From positions 101,151-165,150 of the forward strand of contig CAWIGG010000006.1 of NCBI GenBank assembly GCA_963835575.1: a stretch of 64,000 nucleotides of DNA. Reading direction: 5' to 3'. Position 1 is the stretch's first letter. Each line of letters begins with the position of its first letter. The notes under the pieces are model-generated. The model worked only from the letters and a program-made list of their open reading frames with translations, searched no databases and was not told the DNA's origin. This DNA comes from an uncultured Spirochaetota bacterium (lineage in GTDB: Bacteria > Spirochaetota > Brevinematia > Brevinematales > JAOACQ01). Below, piece by piece: positions 1-21,611 of the stretch. Made by a program: the position numbers and the translations under genes.

Positions 1-1
1 T

Positions 2-1402
2 TTGAGTTTTCTTACGTTTATGTTTCTCCTTGTCCTGGGCGGTTGTTCCCTGAAGTCCGGGGGCGGCGGGAACTCGGGCGGAACGGGTACACAGAATTCT
101 TCATCGAGCGTAGTTTCTCTGTCTTTTCCGGCCGGAACGGCCGGTGTTTCCACTAATATCGGAAGCCTGACAATTTCAATTCCCTCAGGCGCGCTGGACC
201 ACAACGAAACAATAACGGTCATTCCGTATTTTTATTCTTCAGAACTGGCGGCGGTCAGGGGGATCAGCCCGTTCCCTTCCGGAGTGCAGTTCCTGCCCGA
301 CGGCCTTTCCTTCCTGAAGCCGGTAACCATTGAGATACCGACCGAACTCCCCATGGCCACAAACTCGAATTACGGGATTTTTCTATTTAACAGCCTTTCC
401 AACCGGTGGGAACAGCAGACAAATTCAGGGTTCTGCTTTGATACCGAAATAGTCCGTTATCAGATAAGCCATTTCTGCACATACGGCGTTTCCCCATGGA
501 CCGGTGAAGGTCTCGGGACTTTCGGCCAGGTTCTTGAAACCTCCGGCGGGGATGCGGCCTATGCCGCGTTAAAGGCTTCCATTCTTCAGGGCGGAGCGAT
601 CTTCCAGATGAAAAAGAAAGTCGGCGGGGACACCTACCAGGTCTGCGGCGTCGGGTTTGACGTCCAGTACAGCTACAACGGCGACGAAGACCAGTATCTT
701 GAAACAGTGGGCGACACCTCTTCGACAACCACCTATCTGAACTACAGCGAGGACCGTATTGCTTCCGGAGGCCAGCTGGTCTATACCGCCCTGGTGACGC
801 TTTACTGGAAAAAAGTCGATCTGGAAAAATACAAGGTTGATATGACGTTTAGTGTTACCAGCTCGACTTTCGACCTGGGGGGCGGAGACAGCACCACGCT
901 TTCGGGATACAGCGCCTCATTGAGCTTTACCGTCACGGTCGACCCTTCGACAAACGGCGTGTTTGTCATCGGCATGGACCCGAACTATCCGGCGCTGGAA
1001 TACAGTCCTATGAATCAAAGCCTGGGAGGCTGGACGCTGTCGACGTCGGATTCCGATTTGTGGTTCCAGAACCTCCAGTGCCCTTCAACCCTGGACCTGG
1101 AGGATGGAATATTCGGGGAAATCACCACGGCCCCCGGAACCAGTTATTTTTTTATTTTTCCTGATGATAACATTGCCTCGGTGGAGATGTGGAGCGCTGA
1201 TGAGCATGGAAATCCGGTGTATGCCACGAGTCTTTACCTGTGGGCAATATTAAGGCAGTTTACCGACGAAACAATTGAAAACGACGGGTTCCCCATGGTT
1301 CTTTCCGACGGCTGGAGTTCAAGCGGGTCCGGCGTCATGTACGGGGATATGGGAAGTATTTTTAACGGCAGTTATACGATCAATGTCTCCAAAGTGCAGT
1401 AA
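2..1402 (+). CDS. putative lipoprotein of unknown function (5' end at or just beyond window edge)
   Basis: 466-aa ORF. The N-terminus ...FMFLLVLGGC has a lipobox followed by a Gly/Ser-rich linker. TAA stop. No family recognised. Confidence 0.5.
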   Translation: MSFLTFMFLLVLGGCSLKSGGGGNSGGTGTQNSSSSVVSLSFPAGTAGVSTNIGSLTISIPSGALDHNETITVIPYFYSSELAAVRGISPFPSGVQFLPDGLSFLKPVTIEIPTELPMATNSNYGIFLFNSLSNRWEQQTNSGFCFDTEIVRYQISHFCTYGVSPWTGEGLGTFGQVLETSGGDAAYAALKASILQGGAIFQMKKKVGGDTYQVCGVGFDVQYSYNGDEDQYLETVGDTSSTTTYLNYSEDRIASGGQLVYTALVTLYWKKVDLEKYKVDMTFSVTSSTFDLGGGDSTTLSGYSASLSFTVTVDPSTNGVFVIGMDPNYPALEYSPMNQSLGGWTLSTSDSDLWFQNLQCPSTLDLEDGIFGEITTAPGTSYFFIFPDDNIASVEMWSADEHGNPVYATSLYLWAILRQFTDETIENDGFPMVLSDGWSSSGSGVMYGDMGSIFNGSYTINVSKVQ

Positions 1403-1493
1403 AGCATCCGGAGAATGTGACATAAATTCAAGGCTTCATATCCTTCTGTCATTAAAACGGCTTGACCGGCCAATATTATAGCCTTTGCTTAAT

Positions 1494-1522
1494 TTGACAA
1501 TTTACTACAAGTGTAGTATATT
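1494..1522 (+). promoter_or_regulatory. sigma70-like promoter with embedded palindromic operator
   Basis: TTGACA (1494-1499), 17-nt spacer, TATATT (1517-1522). The spacer and -10 contain the palindrome TACTACaagtGTAGTA (1503-1518). A GAAGGAG SD and the ATG at 1547 follow. Confidence 0.55.
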
Positions 1523-1546
1523 TTATCCTATTTTGAAGGAGAAAAA

Positions 1547-2305
1547 ATGCATAGATATTTGAGGAAGGGGATTTTATTATTGATTCCATTATTGCTTGTT
1601 GTCTTCGGATTGTCATTCGGCGAAAGCCCCGGTACCGATCCTCTCTGGCAGAAAGCCGTTGAAATTGCCGGTAAAAACACAAACTGGATCCCCGGAAGTA
1701 TGGTTATAAAAAACTATGTGCTGGAAGACAATGGTAATGTCAAGAAAGCCGAGGAAATAACAATGAAAGTATACCTGGATGAGAGCAATCAGCTTAAATC
1801 GGATATGGTAAAATATCTGGAAAACGGTGTTGACGTGACGGAAAGAAAGAAAAATGATATTGAGCAGGCGCAGAGGAGAAATAGGAGTACCAATCAAGGT
1901 CAGGGGATGGTTGTGGGCTTTGATAATTTGATTCCTTTCATGCCGGGCGAACAGACAAATATCTCGCTCAGCAATACCGGCCGGAAAGTGACCTATGAAA
2001 ACAGGGAATTCATCATTTACGACTATAAAAGAATAATGATTAGAGGCGAAAGACAGATTGGCAGGGCCTGGCTCGATTCTGTAACAGGCATACCTCTGAA
2101 AATCGTTTATACCGTCGATCCGCTTCCGCAGTATGTATTCAGGATAACGAACGAGGTGGTGTTTCAGACCGGCAGAAAAGGCGGATGGTATCCCGAAAGA
2201 CTGACCGTGGACGGCTCCGGAGGATTCATTCTGTTTAAAATGAATATGAACAGCACGACATTCTTCTCAGATTTCTGGAACCAGGATAAAGTTAAGAAGA
2301 AATAA
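1547..2305 (+). CDS. secreted hypothetical protein
   Basis: 252-aa ORF with a signal peptide (MHRYLRKGILLLIPLLLVVFGLSFG) and an SD upstream. No family recognised with confidence. Confidence 0.55.
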   Translation: MHRYLRKGILLLIPLLLVVFGLSFGESPGTDPLWQKAVEIAGKNTNWIPGSMVIKNYVLEDNGNVKKAEEITMKVYLDESNQLKSDMVKYLENGVDVTERKKNDIEQAQRRNRSTNQGQGMVVGFDNLIPFMPGEQTNISLSNTGRKVTYENREFIIYDYKRIMIRGERQIGRAWLDSVTGIPLKIVYTVDPLPQYVFRITNEVVFQTGRKGGWYPERLTVDGSGGFILFKMNMNSTTFFSDFWNQDKVKKK

Positions 2306-2696
2306 TCAGGGCAAAAGTTAATAACCAAAGAGATGTGAATTTCACCAAGAAGAACGGACCAATTTTTCCTGGTGCCGCTTCAATATTGAATCTTCCGCTA
2401 AGCCGCGCGAAGTCACGCCAATAATTAAAAAGTATTCTTGAAAAATTAATAATTTCACACAGGGCCCACAGAGTTCGCGGAGCTATAATAAAGATTAACT
2501 TGAAAACTCTGTGTCCTCTGTGAACTCTGTATGAAAAACAAATACCAATCTATCCTTCTTTTACTAATAGTTGGAAATCCATTCCGCGCAGCAGATGTTG
2601 CTGTTGGAAAGATTGGTCCCGTACATTGCGATAATATTATCGTAAATCGCTTTTGCCGCGGCAGAAGAATTATGGTATGGGCACAGGCAGATCCCT

Positions 2697-4491
2697 TCAT
2701 CTTCCTTTACTATGATAATATGGACAGCCGTACGGCCCGACCAATAGATCGCCGATTACGGTCCCGGGGCTGACCTCCTGGCCGGCTGAAACTTTGATCG
2801 CGTTCAATTGATTTGTCAGGAACCCTATCGCCGCGCTTGGTTCGAAGACCAGGCTGACTGTATAGGAACTGTTAATATAAATATTCACTGAAACCATAAT
2901 CTGGTAAGGCGGAGTGGAAAGGCTGTTGGTATTGTAATTGATATATTGTATAGTCCCGTAAGTCGGCGATATGATAGCGCTTTTTGTCAGATTGGTTTTA
3001 ATTTTGAGGTCGATGCCGTTATGCGGCTTGCCCGGGCCGCTCCAGTCCGGGGTCGCGAACGCGGCCACGTAATCAATATCATCCGGGTGCGCGTAATGAA
3101 ATTCCAGCGGCATAAATGTGAATTCCTTAAAGCCGCCGGGAACATCTGGCAGATTGTTCGTGTCCCTGCCGAAGGCTAAAACGGTACCGTTTGTTACGCT
3201 GAAGTCGGAAGGCCTCGGTATGTCTCCCGGCTGGTTGACTTTATAGAGTAAAACGCCGTTTGACAGCTGGTAGATCCCCGGAAATGTTTTGCCGTTATAA
3301 TTTGTGTCGCTCGCGGATGTTATTGTAAAATTTATTATTTTCGGGACGGTGTTCGTGTTTAAGTTTATTATTCCCGCGAAGAGCATCGTATTCGCGTTAT
3401 TTCCCAATAGACAGTAATTTCCGGAAAGCGTCATATGCCAGGTTTTACCGTACCAAACGCCTTCCAGTTCTGTTTCAGACGCCGGCTTCATATTTCCCAT
3501 GCCGTTGCCATGGAATTGAGAGGCCGAGCTGGGGATTTCCGATTCGGCGGGAGTGTCGGTAATGATGTCGAAATATTCCCCTCCGGCGACCATGGCGTCA
3601 ACATCCCCTTGATAAAGAGAAGAAGTTGAATTACTGCCTGCGTCGCTCATGCCCTGTAATGTTGATACGTCCGCGTCCGACGGGAAATCGAAGTATTTTT
3701 CAGCAGGGACAGAGTTATTATCCTTGATTTTAAACAGGAAGGTATTGCCGCTTCCCTTTGATATGCCGCTGCCTGCAAACCATGCCCGGTAGGAAGCGGC
3801 GCCGCCGTTCCATTTGCCTGTCAGGAGTTTGGTGAACCGGTGAGTATTTGTGTTCCCCTCCAGGTGTGTTCTTTGGGAATAAGCTGAATTCGTATATTCC
3901 ACATAGCATACCAGGTCTATGTTTATATTGCCCGTTCCTTCATCAAAGTATCCCTGCATGATGCCGCGCTCCCTCTGGCTGGAGGAATATTCACGGTACC
4001 AGCTGAGAAGGCAGTAATCAACGGTCCCGTCTTTTTTACCAGCGAAATAGTTCGCCTGGTCAGCGCTTTCCCGGTTCAGGATTTTATTATAAGTATTATC
4101 GGTCCTTCAAAAATTATAAGGAGATGTGAGTTTGATGTCCCCTGCTGAAGTGCCGCCGGTCATACATTCGTTATAAAATGATCCGGCCTGATAGAGGAAT
4201 TTGTAGATGTTGTCCAGCCCGGTTTTGTTTGTGCCGCTGTCGGTACCGGGATCATAGTCTTTAAATGTATTGTATAGTTCAAAGATCGGTCCTCCCCAAT
4301 TCCAGTTTGCTCTCGACGCTTTTGATGAGCCTTCTTGAAAATCAGGAGCGGCGTTTTTAGCGGCCTCAAAAAAAATATTTTTCTGCGTATTATTATTGCC
4401 GCTGGTGCCGGTATTATTGATATTGTTTTATGCATCCTGTAAAACAAAATGTAATTAACGCCGGAATAATCAGAGAAAGGGATTTTTTCAT
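2697..4491 (-). pseudogene. disrupted lipoprotein gene with C-terminal M23-like segment (1 frameshift + 1 in-frame TGA)
   Basis: The ATG at 4491 encodes MKKSLSLIIPALITFCFTGC (lipobox) but hits TAA after 25 codons. The body frame (NNINNTGTSGNNNTQKNIFFEAAKNAAPDFQEG...) is offset by 1 nt, with the shift near the A/T runs at 4426-4434. It carries an in-frame TGA at 4107-4109 and continues into the 420-aa ORF 2697-3959 (HNGID...AGQEVSPGTVIG). The span is 1795 nt, which is 3n+1. Confidence 0.6.
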
Positions 4492-4676
4492 ATTCAGCCC
4501 CTCTATTAAATTGTATATCAGATAAATTACACAGACGTATGATGGAAGAGTAATTTATAGACATTTTATTATATAATAATAATCCCGGCGAAACAATAAA
4601 AAAACAGGAATGTTTAAAAACAATTTTAAATCAAATTTCCATTTTATTTACTTTCCTTTATGACTTTATTAAAATT

Positions 4677-6596
4677 ATGCCTGAAAGATGGGGTTTTATT
4701 ATGCGGTTGAAACATATTAATAAACACGTCCGGTTTTTTCATCTGATTATTTTATGCTTTTTTTTAACGGGATTATCTTTCGGCGATGCCTGGAAGCTGG
4801 TCTGGAGCGATGAATTCAACAGCAATCAGATCGACAGGACAAAATGGAATTTCGCGCTCGGGGGCATCGGCTTCGGAAATAATGAGCTGGAGTATTATAC
4901 CGACAGGCCGCAGAACGCCTCTGTGGAAAACGGCAGTCTGATCATAAAAGCCGTAAAAGAACCCTATATGAGCTGTTCTTATACTTCGGCAAAAATGACG
5001 ACGCAGAGGAAAGCATTCTGGACATACGGCCGGTTTGAGATAAGAGCGAAGCTTCCCTCGGGCAAAGGCATCTGGCCGGCATTCTGGCTGATGCCGGAGG
5101 ATTGGGAAAGCCCGAATAGCGAATACGGCGGATGGCCTTCATGCGGCGAGGCTGACATTATGGAGCTGATCGGAAGCGATCCTTCGACTGTATTCGGGAC
5201 CCTTCATTATGGGGTTCCCTGGACTCACACGGGAGGTTCAAACACATTGCCCGCCGGGATGAGCTTTTCCGATGATTATCATATCTTCGCCCTGGAATGG
5301 GAACCGGGAGAATTCCGCTGGTATGTTGACGGCAGGCTTTACCTGACGCAGAACAGCTGGTTCGGCAGGAGGGAGACGGAAGCTTATGAATACACATACC
5401 CGGCCCCTTTTGACCGGGATTTCTTCCTTCAGCTTAACCTGGCCGTCGGCGGGAACTGGCCGGGCAGTCCCGGCAGTAATACGCGGTTTCCTCAAACATT
5501 AGCAATTGATTATGTCCGTGTGTACCGGAAGGACAATTACCCGCCGCTGAAGGAAAGGAAGGCGCCGGTTATCACTGAAAGCGTTGTACCGCTGAGGCCG
5601 GCGCTGCCTGATGGAAATCTTATCTATAACGGGAATTTCGATGAGACAAACATAAAAGAATACCCTCTTTACAGTGTTGTCGAGGATTCCATGATTTCGG
5701 ACACAGCGGCAAACGGTTACTGGCAGTTCCTGACCGGCTTCGCGGGCGAGGGGACTTTTTCGATTAATAAAGGCGAATTCAGGGCCGGCATAAAACTGCC
5801 GGGCAGGGAAAGCTATTCCATCCAGCTTGTCCAGATCCCCATCCTGCTTGAGAAGGAAGCGGCATATAAGCTGTCCTTTGACGCCCGGGGGGAAAAACCG
5901 CGTACGATCATGGTCAAGCTGACGGAAATCGGCGGTTCCTGGACGGCTTATTCAGGCCTGAAATTTTTCAACCTGACAACTAAAATGGAAAATTACAGCT
6001 TTGTCTTTACCATGAAAGGGGAAACGGATAAAAGGGCGCGCCTGGAATTCAATATGGGCCTGGACCTGTCATCCGTTTATCTTGATAATATCAGTTTTAC
6101 AAAGATAAACAGCGCGAAGCTGGAAAAAACGCCTTTACCGGACGGCAATTATATTTACAACGGCACGTTTGACCAGGGATCAAACAGGATGGTTGAGTGG
6201 CATTTGACGGCAGACGGCGGAGCTTCAGCAGAAGCTTCTGTTGGAAGTGAAATTCAGGAACGGAACGCAAAAATCACGATAAAAGATCCGGGGAAGGAAG
6301 CATCTTCCATAATGTTCTATCAGGAAGGACTGAGAATTGAAAAGGGAAAATCGTATATCGTCCGGTTTTCCGCGAGGTCTTCAGAGAAGAGGAGCATCCA
6401 GGCCGGGTTAACCGGGAGCGGCAATGATCCGCGGTCTTATTACAATCAGACGGTAATTCTTTCGCCCGATATGGAAATATACGCGCTTGAATTTAAAATG
6501 AAACAGGAGACCGATAAAAACGCGCGGCTGGTTTTCCGGCTGGGAAAAGAAAACCCGCAGGTTATTATTGACGATGTCAGTATGTTTGTAAAATAG
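4677..6596 (+). CDS. glycoside hydrolase family 16 (laminarinase/beta-glucanase type) with two C-terminal CBM4/9-like modules
   Basis: Shows WKLVWSDEFN, NNELEYYT, YGRFEIRAKLP and GIWPAFWLMP, plus the catalytic E-x-D-x-x-E as GEADIME. There are two repeats starting DGN(L/Y)IYNG(N/T)FD. It has a signal/TM N-terminus, and the start could be the second ATG (4701). Confidence 0.9.
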   Translation: MPERWGFIMRLKHINKHVRFFHLIILCFFLTGLSFGDAWKLVWSDEFNSNQIDRTKWNFALGGIGFGNNELEYYTDRPQNASVENGSLIIKAVKEPYMSCSYTSAKMTTQRKAFWTYGRFEIRAKLPSGKGIWPAFWLMPEDWESPNSEYGGWPSCGEADIMELIGSDPSTVFGTLHYGVPWTHTGGSNTLPAGMSFSDDYHIFALEWEPGEFRWYVDGRLYLTQNSWFGRRETEAYEYTYPAPFDRDFFLQLNLAVGGNWPGSPGSNTRFPQTLAIDYVRVYRKDNYPPLKERKAPVITESVVPLRPALPDGNLIYNGNFDETNIKEYPLYSVVEDSMISDTAANGYWQFLTGFAGEGTFSINKGEFRAGIKLPGRESYSIQLVQIPILLEKEAAYKLSFDARGEKPRTIMVKLTEIGGSWTAYSGLKFFNLTTKMENYSFVFTMKGETDKRARLEFNMGLDLSSVYLDNISFTKINSAKLEKTPLPDGNYIYNGTFDQGSNRMVEWHLTADGGASAEASVGSEIQERNAKITIKDPGKEASSIMFYQEGLRIEKGKSYIVRFSARSSEKRSIQAGLTGSGNDPRSYYNQTVILSPDMEIYALEFKMKQETDKNARLVFRLGKENPQVIIDDVSMFVK

Positions 6597-6652
6597 TTTT
6601 TTTATTAGAAATAACTAATCATAGAGTATAATTCTTAAGTAATATGTGTTGT

Positions 6653-7204
6653 AACCACAGATTACACAGATGTCACAGATGATAATTTTGAAAGTATCAG
6701 TGTAATTATGCTATAATTGTGAATATGAAAAAAGAAGAAAGTAAAGATCGTCGGGCTTATGGGATTATTGGTGCGGCTATTGAGGCACACAAAGAATTAG
6801 GATCAGGATATCTGGAAGCAGTATATTAGGAAAGCCTTGAATTAGAATTTAAACTCAGAAAAATCCCTTATATATCTCACCCCATTCTTAAGGTTTTTTA
6901 TAAAGATATTGAACTGAAAAAATATTATGTGCCTGATTTTATCGTATATAATGAAGTGATTCTGGAAATTAAAGCGGAAAGATGTTTGACGAGAGTAGAT
7001 GAGGCGCAAATAATAAACAGTTTAAAGAATTCGGGAATGAAAGTAGGTTTGCCGATTAATTTTGGTGAAAGCTCATTAAAATTCAAACGTTTTGTTTACT
7101 GAAACATATTTCATATTTCGTTTATTGTTAATAGAATGAATTCGAATTGAGATTTAATATTGATACCACAGAAATAATCTGTGAAATCAGTGAAATCTGT
7201 GGTT
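6653..7204. repeat. inverted-repeat-bracketed cassette carrying a GxxExxY ORF (CACAGAT-word arms)
   Basis: The left arm is AACCACAGATTACACAGATGTCACAGATG (6653-6681). The right arm at 7176-7204 reverse-complements to AACCACAGATTTCACTGATTTCACAGATT, matching at about 25/29 positions. Confidence 0.7.
6725..7102 (+). pseudogene. GxxExxY protein (PD-(D/E)XK-like) with in-frame TAG
   Basis: The translation MKKEESKDRRAYGIIGAAIEAHKELGSGYLEAVY*ESLELEFKL...PDFIVYNEVILEIKA... is collinear with the intact paralog at 11561-11962. The TAG at 6827-6829 sits where the paralog has CAG (EAVYQEAL). This gene is absent from the ORF track. Confidence 0.8.
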
Positions 7205-7294
7205 TCAGCCAAAAAAATTAAAAACTGAAAAAGTATACTATATAAGGATATAATTCTATATCTTTTTCTGCCGATTCTATAACAGGAGTAGAAA

Positions 7295-9097
7295 ATGGCA
7301 AACGGTCAGGAAAACGGGATACTGGAAGCCTCGCAGGAATATTCCAGGATGGCTGAGCTTCTCAAGGCGGAACGGGAGCCGGAAGCGGCCGCAATGGTCA
7401 AGCAGATCCTGGAATCCGGCGACAGCCTGCAGGACAAGATCCGCAAGATCGAGCTTATTGACGCGCAGGAAATCGGCAAAGTCATCGATGAAGCCCCTCT
7501 CAGTAAAGAGGAGGTTCAGGAGATCATCCGGAATAAGCATGTTTCCACCGATGAGGTTGCCCAGAAGAACAGTGAAAAGATCAAGATAAAGCAGATGAGG
7601 AACCCATTTTTCTTCTATTTCTTCAAGGATTATAAGAAGATCCGTGAATTCGGGAAATATTCGGGATTTATCCGTTTCGGATTGAATATCTCGGGGATCA
7701 AATTTAATTATAATCCCGTAAAATCCCTTTTTGCCGGATTGAAGAAGGACGCCGGCGAACTGATCAATGTTTTGAACTTTGTGCTGGACAAGGGCTGGAT
7801 GGATCTGGACAAGCTTGATTACAACCTGATCATCGTATTCAAACGCCTCTGCGAAGCCTTAACCGCGGTAAAAGCGCCGAAGTCTTCCTATTCATTGAAG
7901 CAGATGCTGGAGAATTATAAAGAGATTGAAACGTATTTTTTAACCTGTCAATACCAGGTTGAATATCCCGATATCATCCGTTCCAGCATTATCCAGGTTC
8001 TGGAAAAACAGCACAGGCCGGCCGGACTAGTCGAGCTGGCGGAAATTCAGGTGCGGCGGATTTTGTTTCAGGACGATGCGCCCTGCCTTTATAATTGTAT
8101 CCTTGCCCTGAATATGAGCGAATACCGGCGTTTTATAAAAATAGGCGATATGATCCGAAACCAGCAGGGCGGCGTTATCAATACGTTTTCTTTTGACTGC
8201 ACGGCCCTTATTCAGCAGAAGATCAACGTTTATATTAATGATAAAACAAAGGCCTGGCAGAACCTTCTCCAGGAAAAGGCCGAGATCGGCAAAATCCAGT
8301 ATTTTCTCAAGCATTTCATCCGGCAGGATTCCTCGGGCTACAGAAGCTACAGCTTCACCCTGCTGACGGATTTTTATGATTTTTCCTTCTATGAAGTAAA
8401 AGAAGAGAGCTTTAGTTATGATAAGAACAATACCGCCAGGCTTGCCCTGAAATTTTTCGGCAAGTTTATGAGCGAGTTTGAGAATTTCTTTATTGACAGG
8501 ATCGATATAGAGGGTTACGGGCCCGTCAGGGTTTTCAGCAGGGAGGTTTTCCAGCTGGAGATCGACAAGCTGAAGCGCGGGCTCGGCAAATTTTCGGACG
8601 CGAGCTATACATATCCCATCATTTCGAGGCGCGAGTTTTTTGAGCAGAAGACCTCCAAGAAGGAAGTCATGCCGCCGCCGCCGGTGCTCACTTTGATACA
8701 GACAGCGGATTCCCTTTCCGATATACTGGTCGGCATCGGCACCAAGCTGGGAAATATCCATATCAACCAGAAAAAAGGCCCTTCCGCCAACGGTTCTCAG
8801 AGCAGTCTCGCCCCTCTCGAGATTTCCGTAACACGGTCGCATAATGTCAGTATTCCCTACTGGTCCAACAGGATCCTCAGCGCGGGATTTTTAAAAGACA
8901 AGTTTTTTTCCGACGCCGTGGCTACAATAGCCAGCTTATGCTTCCTCTCCGCCATATACTTTTATAATATGCGTCTCTATTCCATTCTGGAAAAAGAAAT
9001 GAAGATAAGCAATATGATCGCTGAAACGCGAAAAAGCCTCGAGAGGCTGGCCGATGTGGTGACGTTTGAAAAAATCAGGAAAACGCAGTCGATTTAA
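7295..9097 (+). CDS. hypothetical protein (600 aa)
   Basis: Long ORF with an AGGAG-like SD (ACAGGAGTAG) 5 nt upstream. The N-terminus is acidic and coiled-coil-like. No domain recognised. Confidence 0.6.
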   Translation: MANGQENGILEASQEYSRMAELLKAEREPEAAAMVKQILESGDSLQDKIRKIELIDAQEIGKVIDEAPLSKEEVQEIIRNKHVSTDEVAQKNSEKIKIKQMRNPFFFYFFKDYKKIREFGKYSGFIRFGLNISGIKFNYNPVKSLFAGLKKDAGELINVLNFVLDKGWMDLDKLDYNLIIVFKRLCEALTAVKAPKSSYSLKQMLENYKEIETYFLTCQYQVEYPDIIRSSIIQVLEKQHRPAGLVELAEIQVRRILFQDDAPCLYNCILALNMSEYRRFIKIGDMIRNQQGGVINTFSFDCTALIQQKINVYINDKTKAWQNLLQEKAEIGKIQYFLKHFIRQDSSGYRSYSFTLLTDFYDFSFYEVKEESFSYDKNNTARLALKFFGKFMSEFENFFIDRIDIEGYGPVRVFSREVFQLEIDKLKRGLGKFSDASYTYPIISRREFFEQKTSKKEVMPPPPVLTLIQTADSLSDILVGIGTKLGNIHINQKKGPSANGSQSSLAPLEISVTRSHNVSIPYWSNRILSAGFLKDKFFSDAVATIASLCFLSAIYFYNMRLYSILEKEMKISNMIAETRKSLERLADVVTFEKIRKTQSI

Positions 9098-9256
9098 TTG
9101 ATCATATTAAAATGAAGTTTCTGCGGACGCGGAATAATTTAAAACAGAACTTTCTTATATTCAGGCCCGTTTTATAATATCTTCTTTCCTGCGGCAGGAC
9201 AAATCATCCTTTTCTTGTATTGCGTGAATCATTTATTCTATACCTGATTGGTGCCC

Positions 9257-9306
9257 GATAATAAAAACAGGCGGCTCAACGGGAGGGTATCCGTCCGGCC
9301 GCCTGT
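9257..9306 (-). terminator. rho-independent terminator (minus strand)
   Basis: The minus strand reads ACAGGCGGC-CGGACGGATACCCTCCCGTTGA-GCCGCCTGT followed by TTTTTATTAT, a 9-bp GC-rich stem with a U-tract. There is no U-tract on the plus strand. Confidence 0.6.
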
Positions 9307-9577
9307 CTATAGAGAGGTACTTTCTGATGAAGAGAATCGCGGTTTTCTAATTATTAATTAATGGAGATTAATTGTATGAAGACGAGGGGGTTGTCCCTGT
9401 AAAGCCGTAATGGAATCCCGCCGGCGCATCGGTTCTGCTTCGCGGCGGGCTAAGTATAGGCTTTTGCCGCCGGCGGGTATCTATATAAAATTTTGGGGCA
9501 ACCCCATGAGACCCTGAAAAAAACCTCCTTTGTTTATTTGTTTTATAGGAAAGATTTTCAAATACTACATTCGTAGT
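9262..9577 (-). ncRNA. candidate ~0.3-kb structured non-coding RNA (unclassified)
   Basis: It is bounded by a near-consensus minus-strand promoter (see 9557-9612) and the terminator at 9257-9306. No ORF of 60 aa or more is present. Long-range helices are GGGGTTGCCCC/GGGACAACCCC and CCCGCCGGCG/CGCCGGCGGG, with alternative pairings. The strand assignment is uncertain, because one helix has a U.G pair on the plus strand versus a C.A mismatch on the minus strand. Confidence 0.3.
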
Positions 9578-9612
9578 ACATATAATATACTACGCGTGTA
9601 GTATTATGTCAA
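9557..9612. promoter_or_regulatory. overlapping divergent promoters, each with a TACTAC-N4-GTAGTA palindrome in its spacer
   Basis: Plus strand: TTCAAA (9557-9562), 18 nt, TATAAT (9581-9586), with TACTACattcGTAGTA at 9563-9578. Minus strand: TTGACA (complement of 9607-9612), 17 nt, TATATT (complement of 9584-9589), with TACTACgcgtGTAGTA at 9588-9603. Confidence 0.5.
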
Positions 9613-9750
9613 GTGTTTTTGAAAATATTTTTTCCTCCGGTATTGACAAAATTGAATATTGCTTTTAAATAAATGTAATTAAATTAATGGACGCGGATTA
9701 TCGGAAGACCGGATAATCTGCAAAATTATTAATATTCGGGAAACTGTTTT

Positions 9751-10341
9751 ATGTGTAAGGAATTTAGGTATTCAATACTTCATCTTTTAGCTGTGTTTTC
9801 ATTAATTTTATTAATACTGAGCGCCTGCGATCTGCTTCAAGACCCCCCTTCCGACCGGCAGAAGACGCTGGGAGAATGGATGTATAACAGGGTAGTTTAC
9901 ATTGACGGCAGTTTTCAGACATATAACGGCAATATTATTACAATTACCTCCAGCGGCGGATCGGTCACAGTTTATACCAATTCTTCTTACACAGCTGTTG
10001 TTTTTAATGAAAAAAATTCATGTCTCTGGGAGACCTGTAATACAAACGGGAATATTATAACAAATACGGGAACCTGGTCCATAAAAGAAACGGACAAATT
10101 GCTGACTTTAACGAAGGTTAATTACACGAATATCCTTTTTATTTTTACTAATGTTTATTTCGTTTATAATTATGCCTATACCTATGACTTTATTGATGAT
10201 AATACTATAAAAATTACTGCTGAAATTGACAGCTATAACTGCATCTTTGAGAATAATACGCCGACAAATTATTCGACAAATAATATTGATATCTTTGCCG
10301 CCGCCGGGGTGAATTATGTTGAGATCGGAAAGATAAGATAG
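9751..10341 (+). CDS. lipoprotein of unknown function (AT-rich)
   Basis: 196-aa ORF with a signal peptide and lipobox (LILLILSAC). The composition is rich in N, T and Y. Confidence 0.6.
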   Translation: MCKEFRYSILHLLAVFSLILLILSACDLLQDPPSDRQKTLGEWMYNRVVYIDGSFQTYNGNIITITSSGGSVTVYTNSSYTAVVFNEKNSCLWETCNTNGNIITNTGTWSIKETDKLLTLTKVNYTNILFIFTNVYFVYNYAYTYDFIDDNTIKITAEIDSYNCIFENNTPTNYSTNNIDIFAAAGVNYVEIGKIR

Positions 10342-10442
10342 GATCCGGTATAATATAGTAAAGCGGATTAAAAAAATAAAACGGGAGAAATGTTATTTTA
10401 GAGATAATTATTTCCGTCATCATCGCTATCTTTGTTCTGGCA

Positions 10443-10802
10443 GTGGTTAATTTTGTGGTCAGGAAAAACATCTCCTTTGCCAGGAGGAATTATAAAACAA
10501 AAAACGTGGAGATCAATCTAAGCAGGACCCCATGCCCGGTCTGCGGCACAATTATAAAGGAAGGGGAAAGGGTCAAAACAACCGCTTATTCCCTGGGAAA
10601 GGAAAAGCTGGTCCTTGTTTACGGCTGTCCCGCCTGTTATCCCCCCGGTAAAGTCATAAAAAGAATATGCCCGGTCTGCAAAAATGAATTGAGAAATAAG
10701 GATTATATCCTGGCCAAAATGTGGGAAGAGGAAAACAAACTCCGTCTTCATATCATGGGCTGTTCGATATGCAAACCGAATTCTTTTGTTGTAAAAAGCT
10801 GA
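10443..10802 (+). CDS. small cysteine-rich (4x CxxC) zinc-ribbon-like protein; start uncertain
   Basis: CPVC, CPAC, CPVC and CSIC motifs are present. The frame is open from 10380 and encodes a TM-like EIIISVIIAIFVLAVVNFVV, but the only canonical start is the GTG at 10443. Confidence 0.5.
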   Translation: MVNFVVRKNISFARRNYKTKNVEINLSRTPCPVCGTIIKEGERVKTTAYSLGKEKLVLVYGCPACYPPGKVIKRICPVCKNELRNKDYILAKMWEEENKLRLHIMGCSICKPNSFVVKS

Positions 10803-10953
10803 ATTCCCCCGTTCCGCGGACAGTAAAAAATTAAACTTCAGGGCTGGCAATTTTTCCAAACTATAATATAATTATTGGGCTTTTGAATTATTGATTAAAA
10901 AAAATATATTCAATCTGGCTGTCATTTTTCTGTAAGGATAGAGGAGGCTTTTT

Positions 10954-11505
10954 ATGCTAGTACCGGCTGTATTAGGCGGCATTGTTGTAGTGATATTGCT
11001 CTGGGTGATGATGGCTTATAACGGTTTTATCAAGCTGAGGAACCAGGCGGATGAATCCTGGAGCGGTATAGACGTCCAGCTCAAGCGGCGCTATGACCTG
11101 ATCCCGAACCTTGTGGAAACCGTCAAAGGCTACGCCAAGCATGAGCAGTCCACTTTCGAGAAAGTGGTCCAGGCCAGGAACGCGGCCATGAGCGCCCAGA
11201 AAGTGGAAGATAAAGCCCAGGCGGAGAACATGCTTTCAGGCGCCCTGAAATCTATTTTTGCCCTCGCTGAAAACTATCCGGAGCTCAAGGCGAACCAGAA
11301 TTTCCTCGATCTGCAGAAGAACCTGGCGGAAATTGAGGACCAGCTCCAGAACGCCAGAAGATATTACAACGCCGTTGTCCGCGACTATAATATCCAGTGC
11401 GAAAGCTTCCCGTCTGTCATACTTGCCGGCATGTTCGGCTTCAAAAAACGGGCCTTCTTTGAAATAGCGGAAGCCGAAAAGCAGAATGTCAAGGTGCAGT
11501 TTTAA
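10954..11505 (+). CDS. lemA: LemA family protein
   Basis: N-terminal TM segment followed by YNGFIKLRNQADESWSGIDVQLKRRYDLIPNLVETVKGYAKHEQ, the typical LemA core. Confidence 0.9.
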   Translation: MLVPAVLGGIVVVILLWVMMAYNGFIKLRNQADESWSGIDVQLKRRYDLIPNLVETVKGYAKHEQSTFEKVVQARNAAMSAQKVEDKAQAENMLSGALKSIFALAENYPELKANQNFLDLQKNLAEIEDQLQNARRYYNAVVRDYNIQCESFPSVILAGMFGFKKRAFFEIAEAEKQNVKVQF

Positions 11506-11520
11506 AGGGAACTGGGTTAT

Positions 11521-11992
11521 CCGCTAAGCCACGCCAAGGAACGCTAAGAAGAATATATAATTGGTAAAAAAAATGGCTGAAGATTTATTATTTAAGGAAG
11601 AAGTTTTTAAAATCATGGGTTGTGCTATGAAAGTGCAGGATGAGTTAGGGAACGGTTTTCTGGAAGCGGTTTATCAGGAAGCTTTAGAAATTGAATTAAA
11701 GCTCATGCAAATCCCTTTTGAATCTCAGAAAAGACTGAGAATTAATTATAAAGGACAGCTGCTTCAAAAAGAATATATTGCCGATTTAATATGCTTTGAC
11801 AAAATAATATTGGAATTGAAAGTTGAAGAGAAGCTGACTTCTATTGATGAAGCTCAGATTTTAAATTATTTGAAAGTTACGGGTTTATCGCTTGGACTCA
11901 TTATAAATTTCGGATCAAAGAAGAAACTTGAGTGGAAACGTTTTGCAAACACTCAACAATAACCTTAGCGTATCTTCGCGATCCTTAGCGGG
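11521..11992. repeat. inverted-repeat-bracketed cassette carrying a GxxExxY ORF (CGCTAAG-word arms)
   Basis: The left arm is CCGCTAAGCCACGCCAAGGAACGCTAAGAAG (11521-11551). The right arm at 11963-11992 reverse-complements to CCGCTAAGGATCGCGAAGATACGCTAAGG. Confidence 0.7.
11561..11962 (+). CDS. GxxExxY protein (PD-(D/E)XK nuclease-like family)
   Basis: Contains LGNGFLEAVYQEALEIEL (the GxxExxY motif) and ADLICFDKIILELKV (a D...ExK-like motif). The start is either TTG at 11561 or ATG at 11573. Confidence 0.85.
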   Translation: MVKKMAEDLLFKEEVFKIMGCAMKVQDELGNGFLEAVYQEALEIELKLMQIPFESQKRLRINYKGQLLQKEYIADLICFDKIILELKVEEKLTSIDEAQILNYLKVTGLSLGLIINFGSKKKLEWKRFANTQQ

Positions 11993-12025
11993 AGCCCCGA
12001 AAGTGTTATAGGGAAGGAGTTGTTT

Positions 12026-13750
12026 ATGAAAAGATTTTTTATATTTATATTTCTGTTTCTTTCAATATCCCTTTCTTACGGCGAATATTTCAGCATTAAA
12101 GATTACAATATCCATGTCAAAGTCCTGAAAGACGGTGTACTGGACATTAACGAAAGAATTTCCGTCACTTTTACCGAGCCCAGGCATGGTATTTTCAGGG
12201 ATATTCCATACGGCTATACTATCACAAAGGCGCAAGGAGGCGAATCGGCCGAATATCCACTTCTTTTCGGGGATCGATATCAGGACCTTCTTTATGACAT
12301 TTCGGTCCAGAACTTTCATTATCAGGTGGAAAAAAACAATGCCATGATCCGCATCCGGATCGGTTCCAAAAACGCTTATGTGGAGGGCGACCAGGTTTAT
12401 ATTATCAATTATAAAGTTTATGGAGAGGTCCGGAGATTCAACGATTATTCCGTAATTTACTGGAACCTGACCGGCAATGAATGGCCGGTTGAAATAGATT
12501 ATGCGGTGTTCTCAATGGAACTGCCTTCCTCAGTCCCGTTAAGCTCAAAGGATTATAGAATTTATTCCGGGGTATACGGCTCGAAGGAAAACGACGCCTG
12601 CTATTATAAATATGAAGCGGATGAGCTTTCCGGAAGGACAATCCGGGCTTTAAATCCGAATGAGGGAATAACCGCCTGGATCAAGCTTCCGAAGGATTAT
12701 TTTGTAAAAAATGATATACTGGACAAACTTTTATGGCTTCAGAACAACTCGGGGCTGTTCGCTATCATTATACCTTTTTTAGTGCTGATCATCGCGTTTC
12801 TGGTCTGGAACAAATACGGGCGCGATGTAAAGATCGTGAAAATGGTCCAGTTCAAACCGCCGGAAGATATGACGCCTGCGGAGGCGGGGGTCATCATCGA
12901 TGATGTGACGGATAACAGGGATGTTCTGTGCCTGATCTATTACTGGGCGGCGGCCGGGTATCTGGAAATAGAAGAGCTGGAGAAGGGGACGCTCTTCAAA
13001 TCAAAAGACTTCAAATTGATTAAAAAGAAAGAACTGCCGGACAACGCTAAAGAATACGAGAAAACCATGTTCAATGGGCTTTTTGAGGGAAAAGAGACGG
13101 AAGTCCTGATCAGTTCGCTCAAAGACACTTTTTATACGACTTTCGACAGCGTTAAAAGCCAGCTCAATGATTATATCGGCAGTCAGGCTTTTTATACGCC
13201 GGGTTCGCGCGGCCTCCGCGCTCTCTTTATATTCCTTGCCATGGTCTTTGTTTTCGGCGGATTTTTCCTGACGTTTTTTGCCGGATGGAGCGCTCTTTAT
13301 ATCGCTTCGGGTATTGTATCGGCGGTCATTTTAATTATTTTCGGGATTTATATGCCAAAGAAGACAGCTAAAGGCCTTGAGAAATACAAAGTCCTTGAAG
13401 GTTTCAAACTTTTTATTGAAAAGGCTGAAAAGCCGAAGCTCGAGGCCCTTATGAAAGAAGACCCGAATTATTTTGACAGGACGCTTTCCTATGCCATAGC
13501 GTTCGGAATGGGCGATAAATGGGCCGCGAAATTCGCCGGCATTATCACGCAGCCGCCTTCGTGGTACCATGGGCACAGCTTTACCGCTTTCTCCACGGCG
13601 TATTTTATCAGCTCGCTGAACTCGAGCATCTCCGGTATGAGCTCGACGATGACATCCCGCCCTTCCAGCAGCGGCTCAAGCGGCGGCGGCGGATTTTCCG
13701 GCGGAGGAGGCGGGGGCGGGGGCGGGGGCGGGGGCGGAGGCAGCTGGTAG
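12026..13750 (+). CDS. DUF2207 domain-containing membrane protein with poly-Gly tail
   Basis: GGAAGGAG SD 6 nt before the ATG at 12026. It has a signal peptide, a large N-terminal domain, several TM helices, and the C-terminus SSGSSGGGGFSGGGGGGGGGGGGGGSW. This family is the usual genomic partner of LemA. Confidence 0.8.
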   Translation: MKRFFIFIFLFLSISLSYGEYFSIKDYNIHVKVLKDGVLDINERISVTFTEPRHGIFRDIPYGYTITKAQGGESAEYPLLFGDRYQDLLYDISVQNFHYQVEKNNAMIRIRIGSKNAYVEGDQVYIINYKVYGEVRRFNDYSVIYWNLTGNEWPVEIDYAVFSMELPSSVPLSSKDYRIYSGVYGSKENDACYYKYEADELSGRTIRALNPNEGITAWIKLPKDYFVKNDILDKLLWLQNNSGLFAIIIPFLVLIIAFLVWNKYGRDVKIVKMVQFKPPEDMTPAEAGVIIDDVTDNRDVLCLIYYWAAAGYLEIEELEKGTLFKSKDFKLIKKKELPDNAKEYEKTMFNGLFEGKETEVLISSLKDTFYTTFDSVKSQLNDYIGSQAFYTPGSRGLRALFIFLAMVFVFGGFFLTFFAGWSALYIASGIVSAVILIIFGIYMPKKTAKGLEKYKVLEGFKLFIEKAEKPKLEALMKEDPNYFDRTLSYAIAFGMGDKWAAKFAGIITQPPSWYHGHSFTAFSTAYFISSLNSSISGMSSTMTSRPSSSGSSGGGGFSGGGGGGGGGGGGGGSW

Positions 13751-13901: not shown

Positions 13902-15602
13902 CAGACTGTGTGAAAAAGGCGGTGTAAGACAATAAAGGCGGAGAAAAATCCTCAAATTTATTTTAATAAGGTATAATATGTAATCAAATTTGAGGTGTGT
14001 AAGATGAACCATATAACAGGAGAGCCAAGAGACCAGATAGTACTTTACGCGGAAACTATTGATGGTTTGATAGAAGAGAAGAACCCTGTAAGAATTATAG
14101 ACGCATATGTGAGCAGACTAAACATCAGGAGGTTGGGATTCAAAATTAAAGAGGCGAAAAAAGGGCGTCCATCCTACACAGCGGATGTATTGTTGAAAAT
14201 ATATATTTACGGATATTTGAACAAAGTCAGGACCACGAGGAAATTAGAAAACGAATGTAAAAGGAATACGGAACTGATATGGCTGACCTGCCGCTTAGCG
14301 CCTGATTTTAAGACCATAGCGGATTTCAGAAGGGATAATATTAAGGGCATAAAAAACATTTTCAAAGAGTTTTTGAAAGTATGCCGCAAATTAGAACTGC
14401 TGACATTTAAATTAACAGCGACAGATGGAACGAAAATAAGTGGGCAAAACAGTCTGGGTAATATTTATAGGCGGGAAAGCATTGAAGGAGTTGAGAAAAA
14501 GATTAATGAAAAAATAGACAAATATCTTTTGGAATTGGATAAAAATGATAAATCGGAAGAAAACGAGTTTGAGTTTTTATCCAGCAACATTGAAAAAAAG
14601 CTGGACAGCCTCAAGACAAGAAAAGAAAAAGTAGAAGCGATAAAAAAAATGTTTGAGGCCGATCCGGAACTTGAAATCGTTTACGGGAATGATCCCGACG
14701 GCAGAATTGGGAAAGATAAAGGGAAAACGGATGTTTTGTACAACGCGCAGATAGCAGTGGACGAAAAGAATAAATTGATTGTCGCGGTGGATGTAACCAA
14801 TGAAAGTAATGATGTTCATCAAGCGGGAAATATGGTTAATAAAGTTGAAGAAATAAAGAAAGAACTTGAAGCCGAACCGGGATTAAAAACCATACATGTC
14901 CTGGATGCCGGATATTATTGCGAAAGTGAGATATTACCGCTTACAGACGGGGGTCATGAAATCTATATTCCAAGCCCGCGCGATGAAAAAGAAAAAAAGT
15001 CCAGGTACAAAGAGCAGCAGAAAGAAAGTATCCCGGCAAAAGGATATCTGGCAGAAGATTTCAAGATTGATAAAGAGAAGAACCAGTTGATTTGTCCGCA
15101 AGGATTACGATTAAATAATCAAAGTGTATATCAGGATAAAAACACGGGGATTACTGTAGCGGAATTCAAGTGCAGGAACGAGAATTGTGAGAAGAAGCAT
15201 TTATGCACAAAAAGCAAAGAAGGCAGGACGGTAAAGTTATCGGTGCGAAAGGAAGATATGGATAAATTCGATGAGAAGGTCCGAAGTGAATTGGGGCAAA
15301 AGATTGTTGCAATCAGAAAAGAGTTGGCAGAACATCCATTTGGAACAATAAAAGGAAATTTTGGTTATAATAATTTCTTGCTGAAGGGGATTGATAAAGT
15401 AAAAAGCGAGTTTAATTTCACGGCATTTATCTATAATTTTAAAAGAGTTCTGAATATTGCTGGTTTTGATAAGTTATTAGCCGCAATATAGTCTGAATTT
15501 CAATGATTATCAGTAATTTTTTATTCAGGCTCTTCTTTAAAGTAAGCAGGAACCTTTAGATGCCTGATCTTATAAATGTATTCTCTTTTTTCACACAGTC
15601 TG
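13902..15602 (+). mobile_element. IS1182-family insertion sequence (~1.7 kb)
   Basis: 16-bp terminal inverted repeat CAGACTGTGTGAAAAA (13902-13917, and complement of 15587-15602) flanking a single transposase ORF. AGA is present on both flanks and may be a 3-bp duplication. Confidence 0.75.
14004..15491 (+). CDS. IS1182-family DDE transposase
   Basis: The N-terminus PVRIIDAYV...GRPSYTADVLLKIYIYGYLNKVRTTRKLENECKRNTELIWL...PDFKTIADFRRDN is the InsH-N/DUF772 type. The C-terminus HPFGTIKGNFGYNNFLLKGIDKV is also characteristic. GAGGTG SD before the ATG at 14004. Confidence 0.8.
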   Translation: MNHITGEPRDQIVLYAETIDGLIEEKNPVRIIDAYVSRLNIRRLGFKIKEAKKGRPSYTADVLLKIYIYGYLNKVRTTRKLENECKRNTELIWLTCRLAPDFKTIADFRRDNIKGIKNIFKEFLKVCRKLELLTFKLTATDGTKISGQNSLGNIYRRESIEGVEKKINEKIDKYLLELDKNDKSEENEFEFLSSNIEKKLDSLKTRKEKVEAIKKMFEADPELEIVYGNDPDGRIGKDKGKTDVLYNAQIAVDEKNKLIVAVDVTNESNDVHQAGNMVNKVEEIKKELEAEPGLKTIHVLDAGYYCESEILPLTDGGHEIYIPSPRDEKEKKSRYKEQQKESIPAKGYLAEDFKIDKEKNQLICPQGLRLNNQSVYQDKNTGITVAEFKCRNENCEKKHLCTKSKEGRTVKLSVRKEDMDKFDEKVRSELGQKIVAIRKELAEHPFGTIKGNFGYNNFLLKGIDKVKSEFNFTAFIYNFKRVLNIAGFDKLLAAI

Positions 15603-20099: not shown

Positions 20100-21611
20100 C
20101 TATTGAGACGCGGCTTTTTTCTTTTTTTCTTTTTTTGCCTTTTTTTCCAGATAAAGCTTGGAATCGGCTTCTTCCATCATTTCTTCAATGGAATAATACT
20201 TTCCGGGCAAATAAGGCGCCGAGCCGACGGAAAAGTCAAGCGTATACGGCTTGCCGGAATTTTGATTATAGTCTTTAATGAATTCCAACATTCTTTTTCT
20301 GATCTGAGAAAATTCCTGGATGGTTGAATCAATTGCAAGAACAGCGAATTCGTCTCCGCCCCACCGGCCTATGATATCTGTCTGGCGGAATGTTTTGATA
20401 AAAATTTTCGCTGTTTCATGGATAATGGAATCCCCTTCTTTATGACCGTATGTGTCATTAATAAATTTTAAGCTGTCGATGTCGATGAAAAAAAACAGGA
20501 ATTCGCGGGGTCTCCTCTTCGAAAGATCAAGGTGCTGTCGGGCCAGAGTCATAAATCCCCTACGGTTGTATAGGCCGGTCAATTCGTCCAGAACGGAAAG
20601 CTGTTCGAGTTTTTTATAGGAGTTTTCAAGGGCCTGGAGTGTTTTTTTAAGCTCTTCTGAGATTTCATTTTCATGCTCGAGGAGCAAAGCGCCTTTTATG
20701 GCTCCGGAAATCTGGCTCCGTAATTCTTCATAGATAATATCATTGTTCTTGATCATGCTGAGCACAATGTAGCCGAAATGCTCGTTTCTCAGGAAAAGCG
20801 GCATAACAGCCGCGCTTACCTGCTCATTTGAATTTATAAACCCGGGCGGTATTATTTTATTTGTCTGAATAACCGGGTTTGAATGATTGACATGCTTGCC
20901 GCCGCGATAGTCAAGCAGTATTTTAGACTCCTGCGGGATTTCCCATTTCAGCTTGCCGTCCCACCGGATATCGCTTTTATATAAACATAATAAAAATTTC
21001 TCTATTCCAAGAATGTCGAACTGGGAAGTCAGAACTTTGATCAATTCTTGAATATTAAGAGTTGACATAATGGATTGACTGATCGAATAAATCAGGAGTT
21101 CCTGATTTCCTCTCTTTTTTAATATATTATACTGAACACGGTTCAGAAATGTGCTGTAGAGAACCTGGGCTTTAAGAAAAATATCCTCTGTTTTATTTAA
21201 TTGTTTAATATCCTTGAGATAAGGGATAATAAGCTTGCGGATAATGATTAATGCCTTTTGCAAGAAGGAGATGTCGACATCCTCTTTTATAAGCTGTTTG
21301 AGGATCTCCTCCATGCCCAGAAGAAAAAAGCTGCTTTCCGAAGGAGCGGTGATATCCTGTTTTAATTTTTTTAAAAGCCGGCCTATCAGGGCAGTATGCG
21401 ACTGATTATCAGCAAAGAAATCCTGAATTTCTTCGAAAATCTCACTGAAAATTGCCGGATCAAACTCATTCGGAATTTTACCCTGTATTTCTTCCCGGGA
21501 ATCTTCTTTTTGATCTGTTTCAAGAGAAACACTGTTCAAAAGTTCATCAGAACATCCGCAGGACTGCCGGATAACCAGTTCGGGTTGGAAGGGAAACGAT
21601 TTCAGGAACAT
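20100..21611 (-). CDS. GGDEF diguanylate cyclase with N-terminal sensor region (downstream part of a frameshifted gene)
   Basis: Contains LDELTGLYNRRGF, FFFIDIDSLKFINDTYGHKEGD and RWGGDEFAVL. The first residues (FPFQPELVIRQSCGC) look like the last strand of a LacI-type periplasmic-binding fold. Confidence 0.8.
   Translation of the reverse strand: MFLKSFPFQPELVIRQSCGCSDELLNSVSLETDQKEDSREEIQGKIPNEFDPAIFSEIFEEIQDFFADNQSHTALIGRLLKKLKQDITAPSESSFFLLGMEEILKQLIKEDVDISFLQKALIIIRKLIIPYLKDIKQLNKTEDIFLKAQVLYSTFLNRVQYNILKKRGNQELLIYSISQSIMSTLNIQELIKVLTSQFDILGIEKFLLCLYKSDIRWDGKLKWEIPQESKILLDYRGGKHVNHSNPVIQTNKIIPPGFINSNEQVSAAVMPLFLRNEHFGYIVLSMIKNNDIIYEELRSQISGAIKGALLLEHENEISEELKKTLQALENSYKKLEQLSVLDELTGLYNRRGFMTLARQHLDLSKRRPREFLFFFIDIDSLKFINDTYGHKEGDSIIHETAKIFIKTFRQTDIIGRWGGDEFAVLAIDSTIQEFSQIRKRMLEFIKDYNQNSGKPYTLDFSVGSAPYLPGKYYSIEEMMEEADSKLYLEKKAKKEKKKKAASQ

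Follow-up and report, generated by a model that had tools for sequence, protein, structure and literature searches.

The window analysed here is a stretch of 64,000 nucleotides from contig CAWIGG010000006.1 of an uncultured bacterium of the Brevinematales (Spirochaetota). It carries three perfect palindromes of the form TACTAC-N4-GTAGTA: TACTACAAGTGTAGTA at 1503-1518, TACTACATTCGTAGTA at 9563-9578 and TACTACGCGTGTAGTA at 9588-9603, termed O1, O2 and O3 in the following. An earlier reading made from the letters alone, the sequence-only reading, had placed the palindromes in the spacers of three promoters and proposed a repressor as the binding protein. A sequence check and a motif search agree on the three positions, and all three promoters were listed by a promoter scan of positions 1-12000. 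Two of them, TTGACA-17-TATATT at 1494-1522 on the plus strand and at 9612-9584 on the minus strand, scored 11 of 12, a value reached by only one more site in the scanned part (6688-6717); the plus-strand TTCAAA-18-TATAAT at 9557-9586 scored 10 of 12. Both promoters with the higher score share the geometry TTGACA-N3-TACTAC-N4-GTAGTA-TATT, the last TA of the palindrome being overlapped by the -10 box. With up to two mismatches, no further copy of the palindrome was present in the 64 kb. At this tolerance 0.53 sites were expected, and none of 100 shuffled sequences reached three sites; for exact 12-base matches the expectation in the window was about 0.004 by our own arithmetic. The region 7178-11791 was 100 % identical in an independent Logan assembly of sequencing run ERR10755942 and is therefore not an assembly artefact. 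The elements concerned are the following:

1494-1522, plus strand: promoter P1, -35 box TTGACA at 1494-1499, spacer of 17 nucleotides (nt), -10 box TATATT at 1517-1522, predicted start near 1529-1530
1503-1518, no strand: operator O1 in the P1 spacer, with a perfect TACA-N2-TGTA core
1547-2305, plus strand: gene of a secreted protein of 252 amino acids (aa) with a signal peptide, ribosome-binding site GAAGGAG at 1535-1541
9260-9579, minus strand: predicted non-coding transcript, about 320 nt long, between the leftward promoter and an intrinsic terminator
9260-9306, minus strand: terminator hairpin ACAGGCGGC...GCCGCCUGU with U-run, carrying a CCUC(C) loop of anti-Shine-Dalgarno type on its inner stem (9281-9287)
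9324-9334, minus strand: conserved motif CUCUUCAUCAG
9494-9506, minus strand: first hairpin UGGGGUUGCCCCA followed by A4U4, a terminator-like site at the position of a central hairpin conserved in relatives
9557-9586, plus strand: candidate promoter of uncertain function
9563-9578, no strand: operator O2, proximal, in the spacer of this weaker candidate and at the start of the leftward transcript
9584-9612, minus strand: leftward promoter, -35 box TTGACA at 9612-9607, -10 box TATATT at 9589-9584, predicted start near 9577-9579
9588-9603, no strand: operator O3, distal, in the spacer of the leftward promoter
9751-10341, plus strand: lipoprotein gene with the lipobox LSAC, uncertain as a member of the regulon

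Their placement within promoters and an association across genomes support the palindromes as repressor operators. In agreement with the sequence-only reading, the window encodes no BlaI-like or other small helix-turn-helix (HTH) regulator: the translations, tblastn and a local BlaI hidden Markov model (HMM) revealed no regulator gene, and the HMM no BlaI-like open reading frame (ORF). The operators of BlaI, MecI and CopY repressors have a TACA-N2-TGTA core, in its extended form KACANNYGTM (PMC1935004, PMC7253601). This extended core fits all three sites in at least one orientation, O1 with TACAAGTGTA, O2 on the plus strand with TACATTCGTA and O3 on the minus strand with TACACGCGTA. The oligonucleotide of the Staphylococcus aureus mecA operator used in band-shifts with MecI is ATAAGACTACATTTGTAGTATATT (Kd2 about 7e-11 M; PMC1935004, Table 1). 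It reads gACTAC-N4-GTAGTA and then TATT, a match to the window consensus at 11 of 12 positions with the following TATT also in common.

The combined pattern of promoter and operator, TTGACA-N3-TACTAC-N4-GTAGTA-N3-T with 19 specified bases, was searched in one genome per species of 185,579 species. Fifty-three loci in many phyla were obtained versus about four expected by chance (own arithmetic); the window's own sites are not among them, and neither is the blaI promoter on contig L119 described below, although it fits the pattern. The first downstream ORF of all 53 loci was classified by Pfam, with these major groups:

Penicillinase_R (PF03965): 21 of 53 loci
TrmB-family regulator of about 270 aa: 6 of 53 loci, all in Bacilli
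HtrA-type protease: 4 of 53 loci
BamA: 3 of 53 loci
Cupredoxin-like protein: 3 of 53 loci, Patescibacteria

Identification of the regulator by co-occurrence, a suggestion of the sequence-only reading, thus pointed to Penicillinase_R. The 21 genes preceded by the same operator include five of Spirochaetota/Brevinematales, and the O1 module is the same as at the blaI promoters of 21 genomes. For the genome of the window, this signature of autoregulation, an operator in front of the repressor's own gene, is circumstantial evidence. Metagenome contigs were scanned independently for pairs of operators at a distance of 8-9 nt, which yielded 51 loci, many with a BlaI-like ORF about 1.4 kb from the operators (local BlaI HMM). 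The regulator is probably a member of the BlaI/MecI/CopY (Penicillinase_R) family, and its partner probably a BlaR1-like protease of the M56 family.

Several loci of these scans deserve a separate description. About 40 soil metagenome contigs of a high-GC lineage (L061-L108, e.g., L072 916-955) carry a pair of operators, separated by 8 nt, in front of the gene for a secreted protein of about 730 aa (MAMGAALAFSAWLGLEALQGGPS...), with the BlaI-like ORF about 1.4 kb away. The module is fully palindromic (TTGACA...operator...TGTCAA) in L041 (755-788) and L043 (2253-2286), was matched there on both strands and may act as a bidirectional promoter. The TACTAC-N4-GTAGTA arrays in L059 (1662-1725) and L090 (3807-4080) are tandem repeats with a period of 24 nt and have to be seen as false positives, not as operators.

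Close relatives of the organism give the regulator a genetic context. The 600-aa protein encoded at 7295-9097 of the window has homologues with 62-63 % identity in metagenome-assembled genomes of Brevinematales/Spirochaetota, where thyX, a dCMP-deaminase-like gene and carB are shared neighbours. In four Brevinematales/Spirochaetota genomes the module precedes blaI-M56, htrA and bamA-skp. The blaI genes are followed by a gene for a short M56 peptidase of 312-367 aa with a HExxH motif; the proteins encoded at L046 643-1746 and L018 2336-3274 matched PF05569 at E values of 3e-20 and 8e-23 and contain HEIGH/HEMGH. Peptidase_M56 and M48 were the only Pfam matches of the relatives' M56 proteins, and a penicillin-binding sensor domain (class D beta-lactamase-like) was not detected on them. 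At htrA a second operator is located 24-25 bp downstream, bamA-skp is preceded by tamB, and in single cases the module stands before tpx and before a gene for a lipoprotein aspartyl protease. Taken together, the predicted targets in the window and the relatives are a LolA-like protein, a non-coding RNA, htrA, bamA-skp, tpx and the lipoprotein protease. The best PDB match of the Brevinematales BlaI was MecI (1okr, 1sax) with an E value of 1.2e-8 over the full length.

A candidate for the cognate regulator is P0012, a BlaI of 127 aa with 79 % identity to the Brevinematales BlaI. It is encoded on the Logan contig L119 from run ERR10755942, from which the Logan contigs of the window also derive. 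Upstream of the gene stands TTGACA-TCA-TACTACATATGTAGTA-TAAT, and downstream of it the N-terminus of an M56 protein is encoded (fragment 954-1514, 59 % identical to the M56 protein of L046). On this circumstantial evidence, P0012 and its partner probably form the blaI-M56 operon of the window's genome. The BlaI proteins P0015 and P0016 originate from other samples and were rejected as the window's own, leaving P0012 as the best candidate.

The stronger of the two arrangements around O2 and O3, the leftward promoter, precedes no recognizable gene. On the minus strand behind it, no ORF of more than 26 aa and no conserved ORF was present; an open frame of 70 codons lacked a start codon and was discarded as a coding gene. 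The HtrA, BlaI, BamA, Tpx and lipoprotein sequences of the relatives had no tblastn match in the window, therefore no gene remnant is located there. Paired operators followed by non-coding DNA were found in the metagenome loci L067, L083 and L060/L104, with L083 and L067 being syntenic with the window, and the contigs of the 600-aa homologues added the RNA loci L109, L111 and L115. Five distinct versions result: those of the window, L109, L111 (equal to L083), L115 (equal to L067) and L060 (equal to L104). They are about 235-320 nt long. In all of them, a promoter with two operators is followed by a 5' and central section that varies, by the motif seen at 9324-9334 in the window and by a GC-rich terminator hairpin with a CCUC(C) loop on its inner stem and a U-run behind it. 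The motif has the same sequence in L109, L111, L115 and the window, with the variant CUACUCAUCAG in L060; its CUCUUC pairs in the predicted structure with a 5' GGAG/GAAGAG segment. The inner stem of the terminator consists of A-U pairs in the window and of G-C pairs in the relatives. The first hairpin may be an early terminator yielding a short form of about 85 nt.

Over about 275 nt, L109, L111 and L115 agree in 78-80 % of the nucleotides, although the identity of each of their ThyX proteins with that of the window is only 59-67 %. The consensus structure has 56 pairs with 94.6 % of the cells paired versus about 50 % in slid controls, and seven compensatory pairs were counted versus zero to two in these controls. 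The fold energy was well below that of shuffled sequences (z = -4.9 for L109 and -4.32 for the 322 nt of the window). Judged by this comparison, the leftward transcript appears to be a conserved structured RNA, and its earlier designation as a controlled unit is supported. Rfam 15 contained no match at gathering score for the whole window; at E ≤ 10 only noise was obtained for positions 9050-9800 and for L109 9200-9580. Three other identities were considered and rejected. An apparently conserved small peptide of the relatives, 'MEREVDSF', falls on the central hairpin, right after which their reading frames diverge. A leader of argS was dismissed, as in the relatives argS lies 240-740 nt past the strong terminator, and the window and L060 are without argS. 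For a CsrB-like sponge, the number of GGA motifs was near chance level (own count).

The other predicted target of the window is the secreted protein encoded at 1547-2305, a controlled unit in the sequence-only reading as well, with O1 in the spacer of its promoter. The protein has no Pfam match. A word-indexed search found two relatives only; an exhaustive search revealed a family of 387 representatives with a length of about 245 aa. A model from the single sequence had a predicted local distance difference test (pLDDT) score of 35, and a model based on an alignment with 81 family members reached 91.2. The fold of this model is LolA-like: the best matches among solved structures were Porphyromonas gingivalis LolA3, NE2245, 3bk5 and RseB/MucB, with E values of about 5e-6 and a probability of 1.0 at template-modelling (TM) scores of 0.34-0.41 only. 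Two of the 81 family members matched Pfam LolA_like weakly. With moderate confidence, the model assigns the product to the secreted proteins of the LolA superfamily. A relative with 43 % identity is encoded at L113 4203-4949, directly upstream of the 600-aa homologue in another member of the Brevinematales.

These observations are best explained by assuming that the three palindromes are operators of a dimeric winged-helix repressor of the BlaI/MecI family, encoded outside the window together with a short M56 protease; we consider this probable. The repressor operon, including the gene of the BlaR1-like membrane metalloprotease, would be autoregulated. One dimer at O1, in the spacer of P1 ahead of 1547-2305, would block RNA polymerase. 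Two dimers, one at O3 in the spacer and one at O2 at the start site, would jointly shut the near-consensus leftward promoter. Its product would be the structured RNA of about 320 nt, possibly accompanied by the short form, and would end in the hairpin with the CCUCC loop. By analogy with BlaR1 and MecR1, we infer that bound dimers occlude the polymerase and that a signal sensed at the membrane would, via the M56 protein, inactivate the repressor by proteolysis and derepress the targets. The nature of the targets, htrA, bamA-skp and a LolA/RseB-like protein, suggests envelope or outer-membrane stress as this signal, a speculative assignment. Equally speculative is an action of the RNA in trans on ribosome-binding sites via its CCUCC loop.

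Several observations weigh against the BlaI-M56 explanation or parts of it. The regulator is not encoded in the window, and the link to L119 is not proof, since run ERR10755942 also contains at least one more species of the Brevinematales (L114). In both O2 and O3 one inner half-site is imperfect, with CGTA in place of TGTA and TACG in place of TACA. In Bacilli, a closely similar palindrome with identical promoter geometry is used by regulators of the TrmB family. The RNA is known in five versions only, of which three are closely similar, and within that of the window lies a GC-rich segment of about 120 nt with strong hairpins (about 9380-9480) that is missing from L109, L111 and L115 and is not repeated elsewhere in the window. 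A target of the RNA was not found: neither the rest of the window nor any of 118 loci contains the complement of CUCUUCAUCAG. Phylogenetic footprinting, another suggestion of the sequence-only reading, gave no support for O1. The sole relative of 1547-2305 with upstream DNA in hand is that on L113, and its TTGACA promoter (4140-4200) has no operator. This target is therefore specific to the lineage of the window, which suggests that the target set changes between lineages.

The alternative that survives best concerns the role of O2 and is compatible with a BlaI-type repressor, not exclusive of it. O2 and O3 would serve two divergent, overlapping promoters, with O2 mainly as spacer operator for the lipoprotein gene 9751-10341, in a divergon like blaZ/blaR1. 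The staphylococcal bla and mec regions are arranged as divergons with both promoters covered by operators. The plus-strand match TTCAAA-18-TATAAT, which the sequence-only reading had named as one of two divergent promoters, does exist with its score of 10 of 12, and the first gene to the right of the operators encodes the lipoprotein. However, this promoter, with its reverse -35 box, is not conserved in L109 and L111 (own reading of the sequences). A transcript from it would begin with a leader of about 158 nt, and the scan offers a second candidate promoter nearer to the gene (9688-9717). The layout TTGACATAA-operator-(-10)-operator, in which the centres of O2 and O3 are 25 bp apart, recurs at the htrA promoters of L050 and L055 and at the small-RNA promoters of L109, L111 and L115. 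A spacing of 24-25 bp is found at these five loci and in L015, L028 and L042. In the relatives, the genes upstream of the htrA and small-RNA promoters are co-directional and no divergent gene adjoins. Because of this, O2 is better explained as belonging to the leftward promoter, as a second operator close to the start that spans about +1 to +15. Two operators per control region have been discussed for this family, and for CopY and BlaI one operator at -35 and one occluding the polymerase have been proposed (PMC7253601). The earlier interpretation, largely right otherwise, thus needs correction where it assigned O2 to a divergent promoter. Since the plus-strand promoter is not conserved and a nearer candidate exists, operator control of the lipoprotein gene is possible, but unsupported, and its place in the regulon is uncertain. 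A divergon at this locus seems unlikely to us.

Two further rivals concern the identity of the repressor. A regulator of the TrmB family could bind the palindromes as in Bacilli. In six Bacilli loci (L007, L012, L013, L017, L043 and L047) TACTACC-N2-GGTAGTA is present in an identical promoter geometry upstream of a TrmB-family gene of about 270 aa, and in three metagenome loci (L066, L084 and L100) two such sites are located between a TrmB-like gene and a gene for the ATPase of an ABC transporter. Nearly the same palindrome thus seems to serve two regulator families, the base at position 7 being the difference. This base was C at all six TrmB-linked sites and at none of the 21 BlaI-linked sites (A 16, T 3, G 2), and therefore the two kinds of operators can be distinguished. 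The window sites have A, A and G, with C in neither orientation; moreover, the module in the relatives of the window organism precedes BlaI, not TrmB. Control by TrmB is very improbable.

The same low standing is given to a regulator of CopY type, which would respond to copper via C-terminal cysteine motifs and not via proteolysis by M56. The cop box of CopY/CopR is TACANNTGTA, with the extended consensus RNYKACANNYGTMRNY (PMC7253601). The protein family is the one proposed for the window's regulator, the KACANNYGTM core is the same as in the window, and so is the pairing of one operator over the -35 box with one occluding RNA polymerase; the outermost bases of the 16-mer differ, being T/A here versus R/Y in the CopY consensus. 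In L011, L025 and L049 (Patescibacteria and one contig of a metagenome-assembled genome labelled 'Gammaproteobacteria'), the module stands before a nearly identical cupredoxin-like membrane protein of 145 aa. A BlaI/CopY-like ORF is found elsewhere in L011 and L025, and these loci may represent a CopY-type copper regulon. In contrast, the sequences of P0012 and of the Brevinematales BlaI, as that of L048, contain no cysteine and lack the metal-binding motifs, hence the Brevinematales BlaI is not a metal sensor of CopY type. The Brevinematales blaI genes are followed by M56 peptidase genes, and copper-handling genes are absent among the targets, with no cop genes at the spirochaete sites. Least probable of all are non-regulatory palindromes, i.e., chance matches, RNA hairpins or ends of mobile elements: the window holds four transposase genes and the RNA copy of O2 would fold into a 5' hairpin, but none of the 100 shuffles reached three sites, the placement within promoters is identical in 53 genomes and associated with BlaI genes, flanking repeats are missing and the window contains no second copy of the intergenic region.

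The proposed BlaI-M56 system resembles the mecA/mecR1-mecI region of S. aureus (MecI) and the bla regions of S. aureus and Bacillus licheniformis (BlaI) in a nearly identical operator, embedded in the promoter, and in two dyads per control region (PMC1935004, PMC7253601). In the relatives, it also shares the autoregulated winged-helix dimer repressor (PF03965) paired with an M56 protease. It differs in the M56 partners, which are without a detectable penicillin sensor; in the targets, a LolA-like protein, a small RNA and in the relatives htrA and bamA-skp instead of beta-lactamase or PBP2a; and in the host, a diderm spirochaete lineage. Two BlaI proteins of Clostridium thermocellum, BlaI_0696 and BlaI_1845, were studied by DNA affinity purification sequencing (DAP-seq) and control small autoregulated regulons with ordered sites for four protomers (PMC8457756). 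Two dimers per promoter and the lack of a beta-lactamase as obvious target are shared with the system proposed here, whereas the half-site in C. thermocellum is GTCTAT or GACTAT and no small RNA or outer-membrane gene targets were reported (PMC8457756).

In gene content and in the presence of a small-RNA arm, the predicted targets recall a further system. The sigma-E regulon of Escherichia coli includes degP/htrA, bamA, skp and the small RNAs MicA, RybB and MicL and is induced by regulated membrane proteolysis. The comparison is a functional one only: a repressor would be removed here, whereas a sigma factor is released there, and neither by sequence nor in Rfam is the RNA of the window related to MicA, RybB or MicL.

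Other parts of the window hold further features. Four transposase-like genes, identified from their translations only, are located at 13995-15491, 23929-25386, 46928-48298 and 51939-53405. On the minus strand, an ORF with a LacI-type periplasmic binding domain and no HTH and an ORF with a GGDEF domain (20100-21611 and 21547-22419) overlap by 65 nt at the start of the GGDEF ORF and may be one frameshifted gene of a sensor-diguanylate cyclase. A DUF2207 membrane protein encoded at 12020-13750 ends with a run of about 20 glycines. A tandem of two paralogous genes (36184-37818 and 37836-39374, minus strand), each encoding a secreted protein of about 510-540 aa, is followed by a gene for an SH3_3 lipoprotein (39385-40170).

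To our knowledge, BlaI/BlaR1 has been described almost exclusively as a switch for antibiotic resistance in Gram-positive bacteria, and we know of no explanation for the thousands of BlaI-M56 pairs without a penicillin sensor present in genomes. A literature search on BlaI in connection with envelope stress, and on regulation in Brevinema or the Brevinematales, returned nothing relevant. The kind of operator is already well known; new is the target set, an unnamed small RNA and genes of envelope biogenesis under a sensor-less M56 system in an unstudied order. One such BlaI-M56 pair thereby receives a target set defined by sequence, and the RNA is a candidate for the first small RNA of the Brevinematales. 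The module TTGACA-N3-TACTAC-N4-GTAGTA-TAnnnT can be used for reading BlaI regulons across many phyla. As a tentative and testable proposal for the purpose of orphan BlaI-M56 systems, the Brevinematales BlaI with its sensor-less M56 protease might be the master switch of an envelope or outer-membrane stress regulon consisting of htrA, bamA-skp, the LolA/RseB-like protein and the conserved small RNA, with a CCUCC loop that silences mRNAs at the ribosome-binding site. If true, this regulon would be a functional counterpart of the sigma-E regulon, including a small-RNA arm, built on the proteolysis of a repressor instead of an anti-sigma factor.

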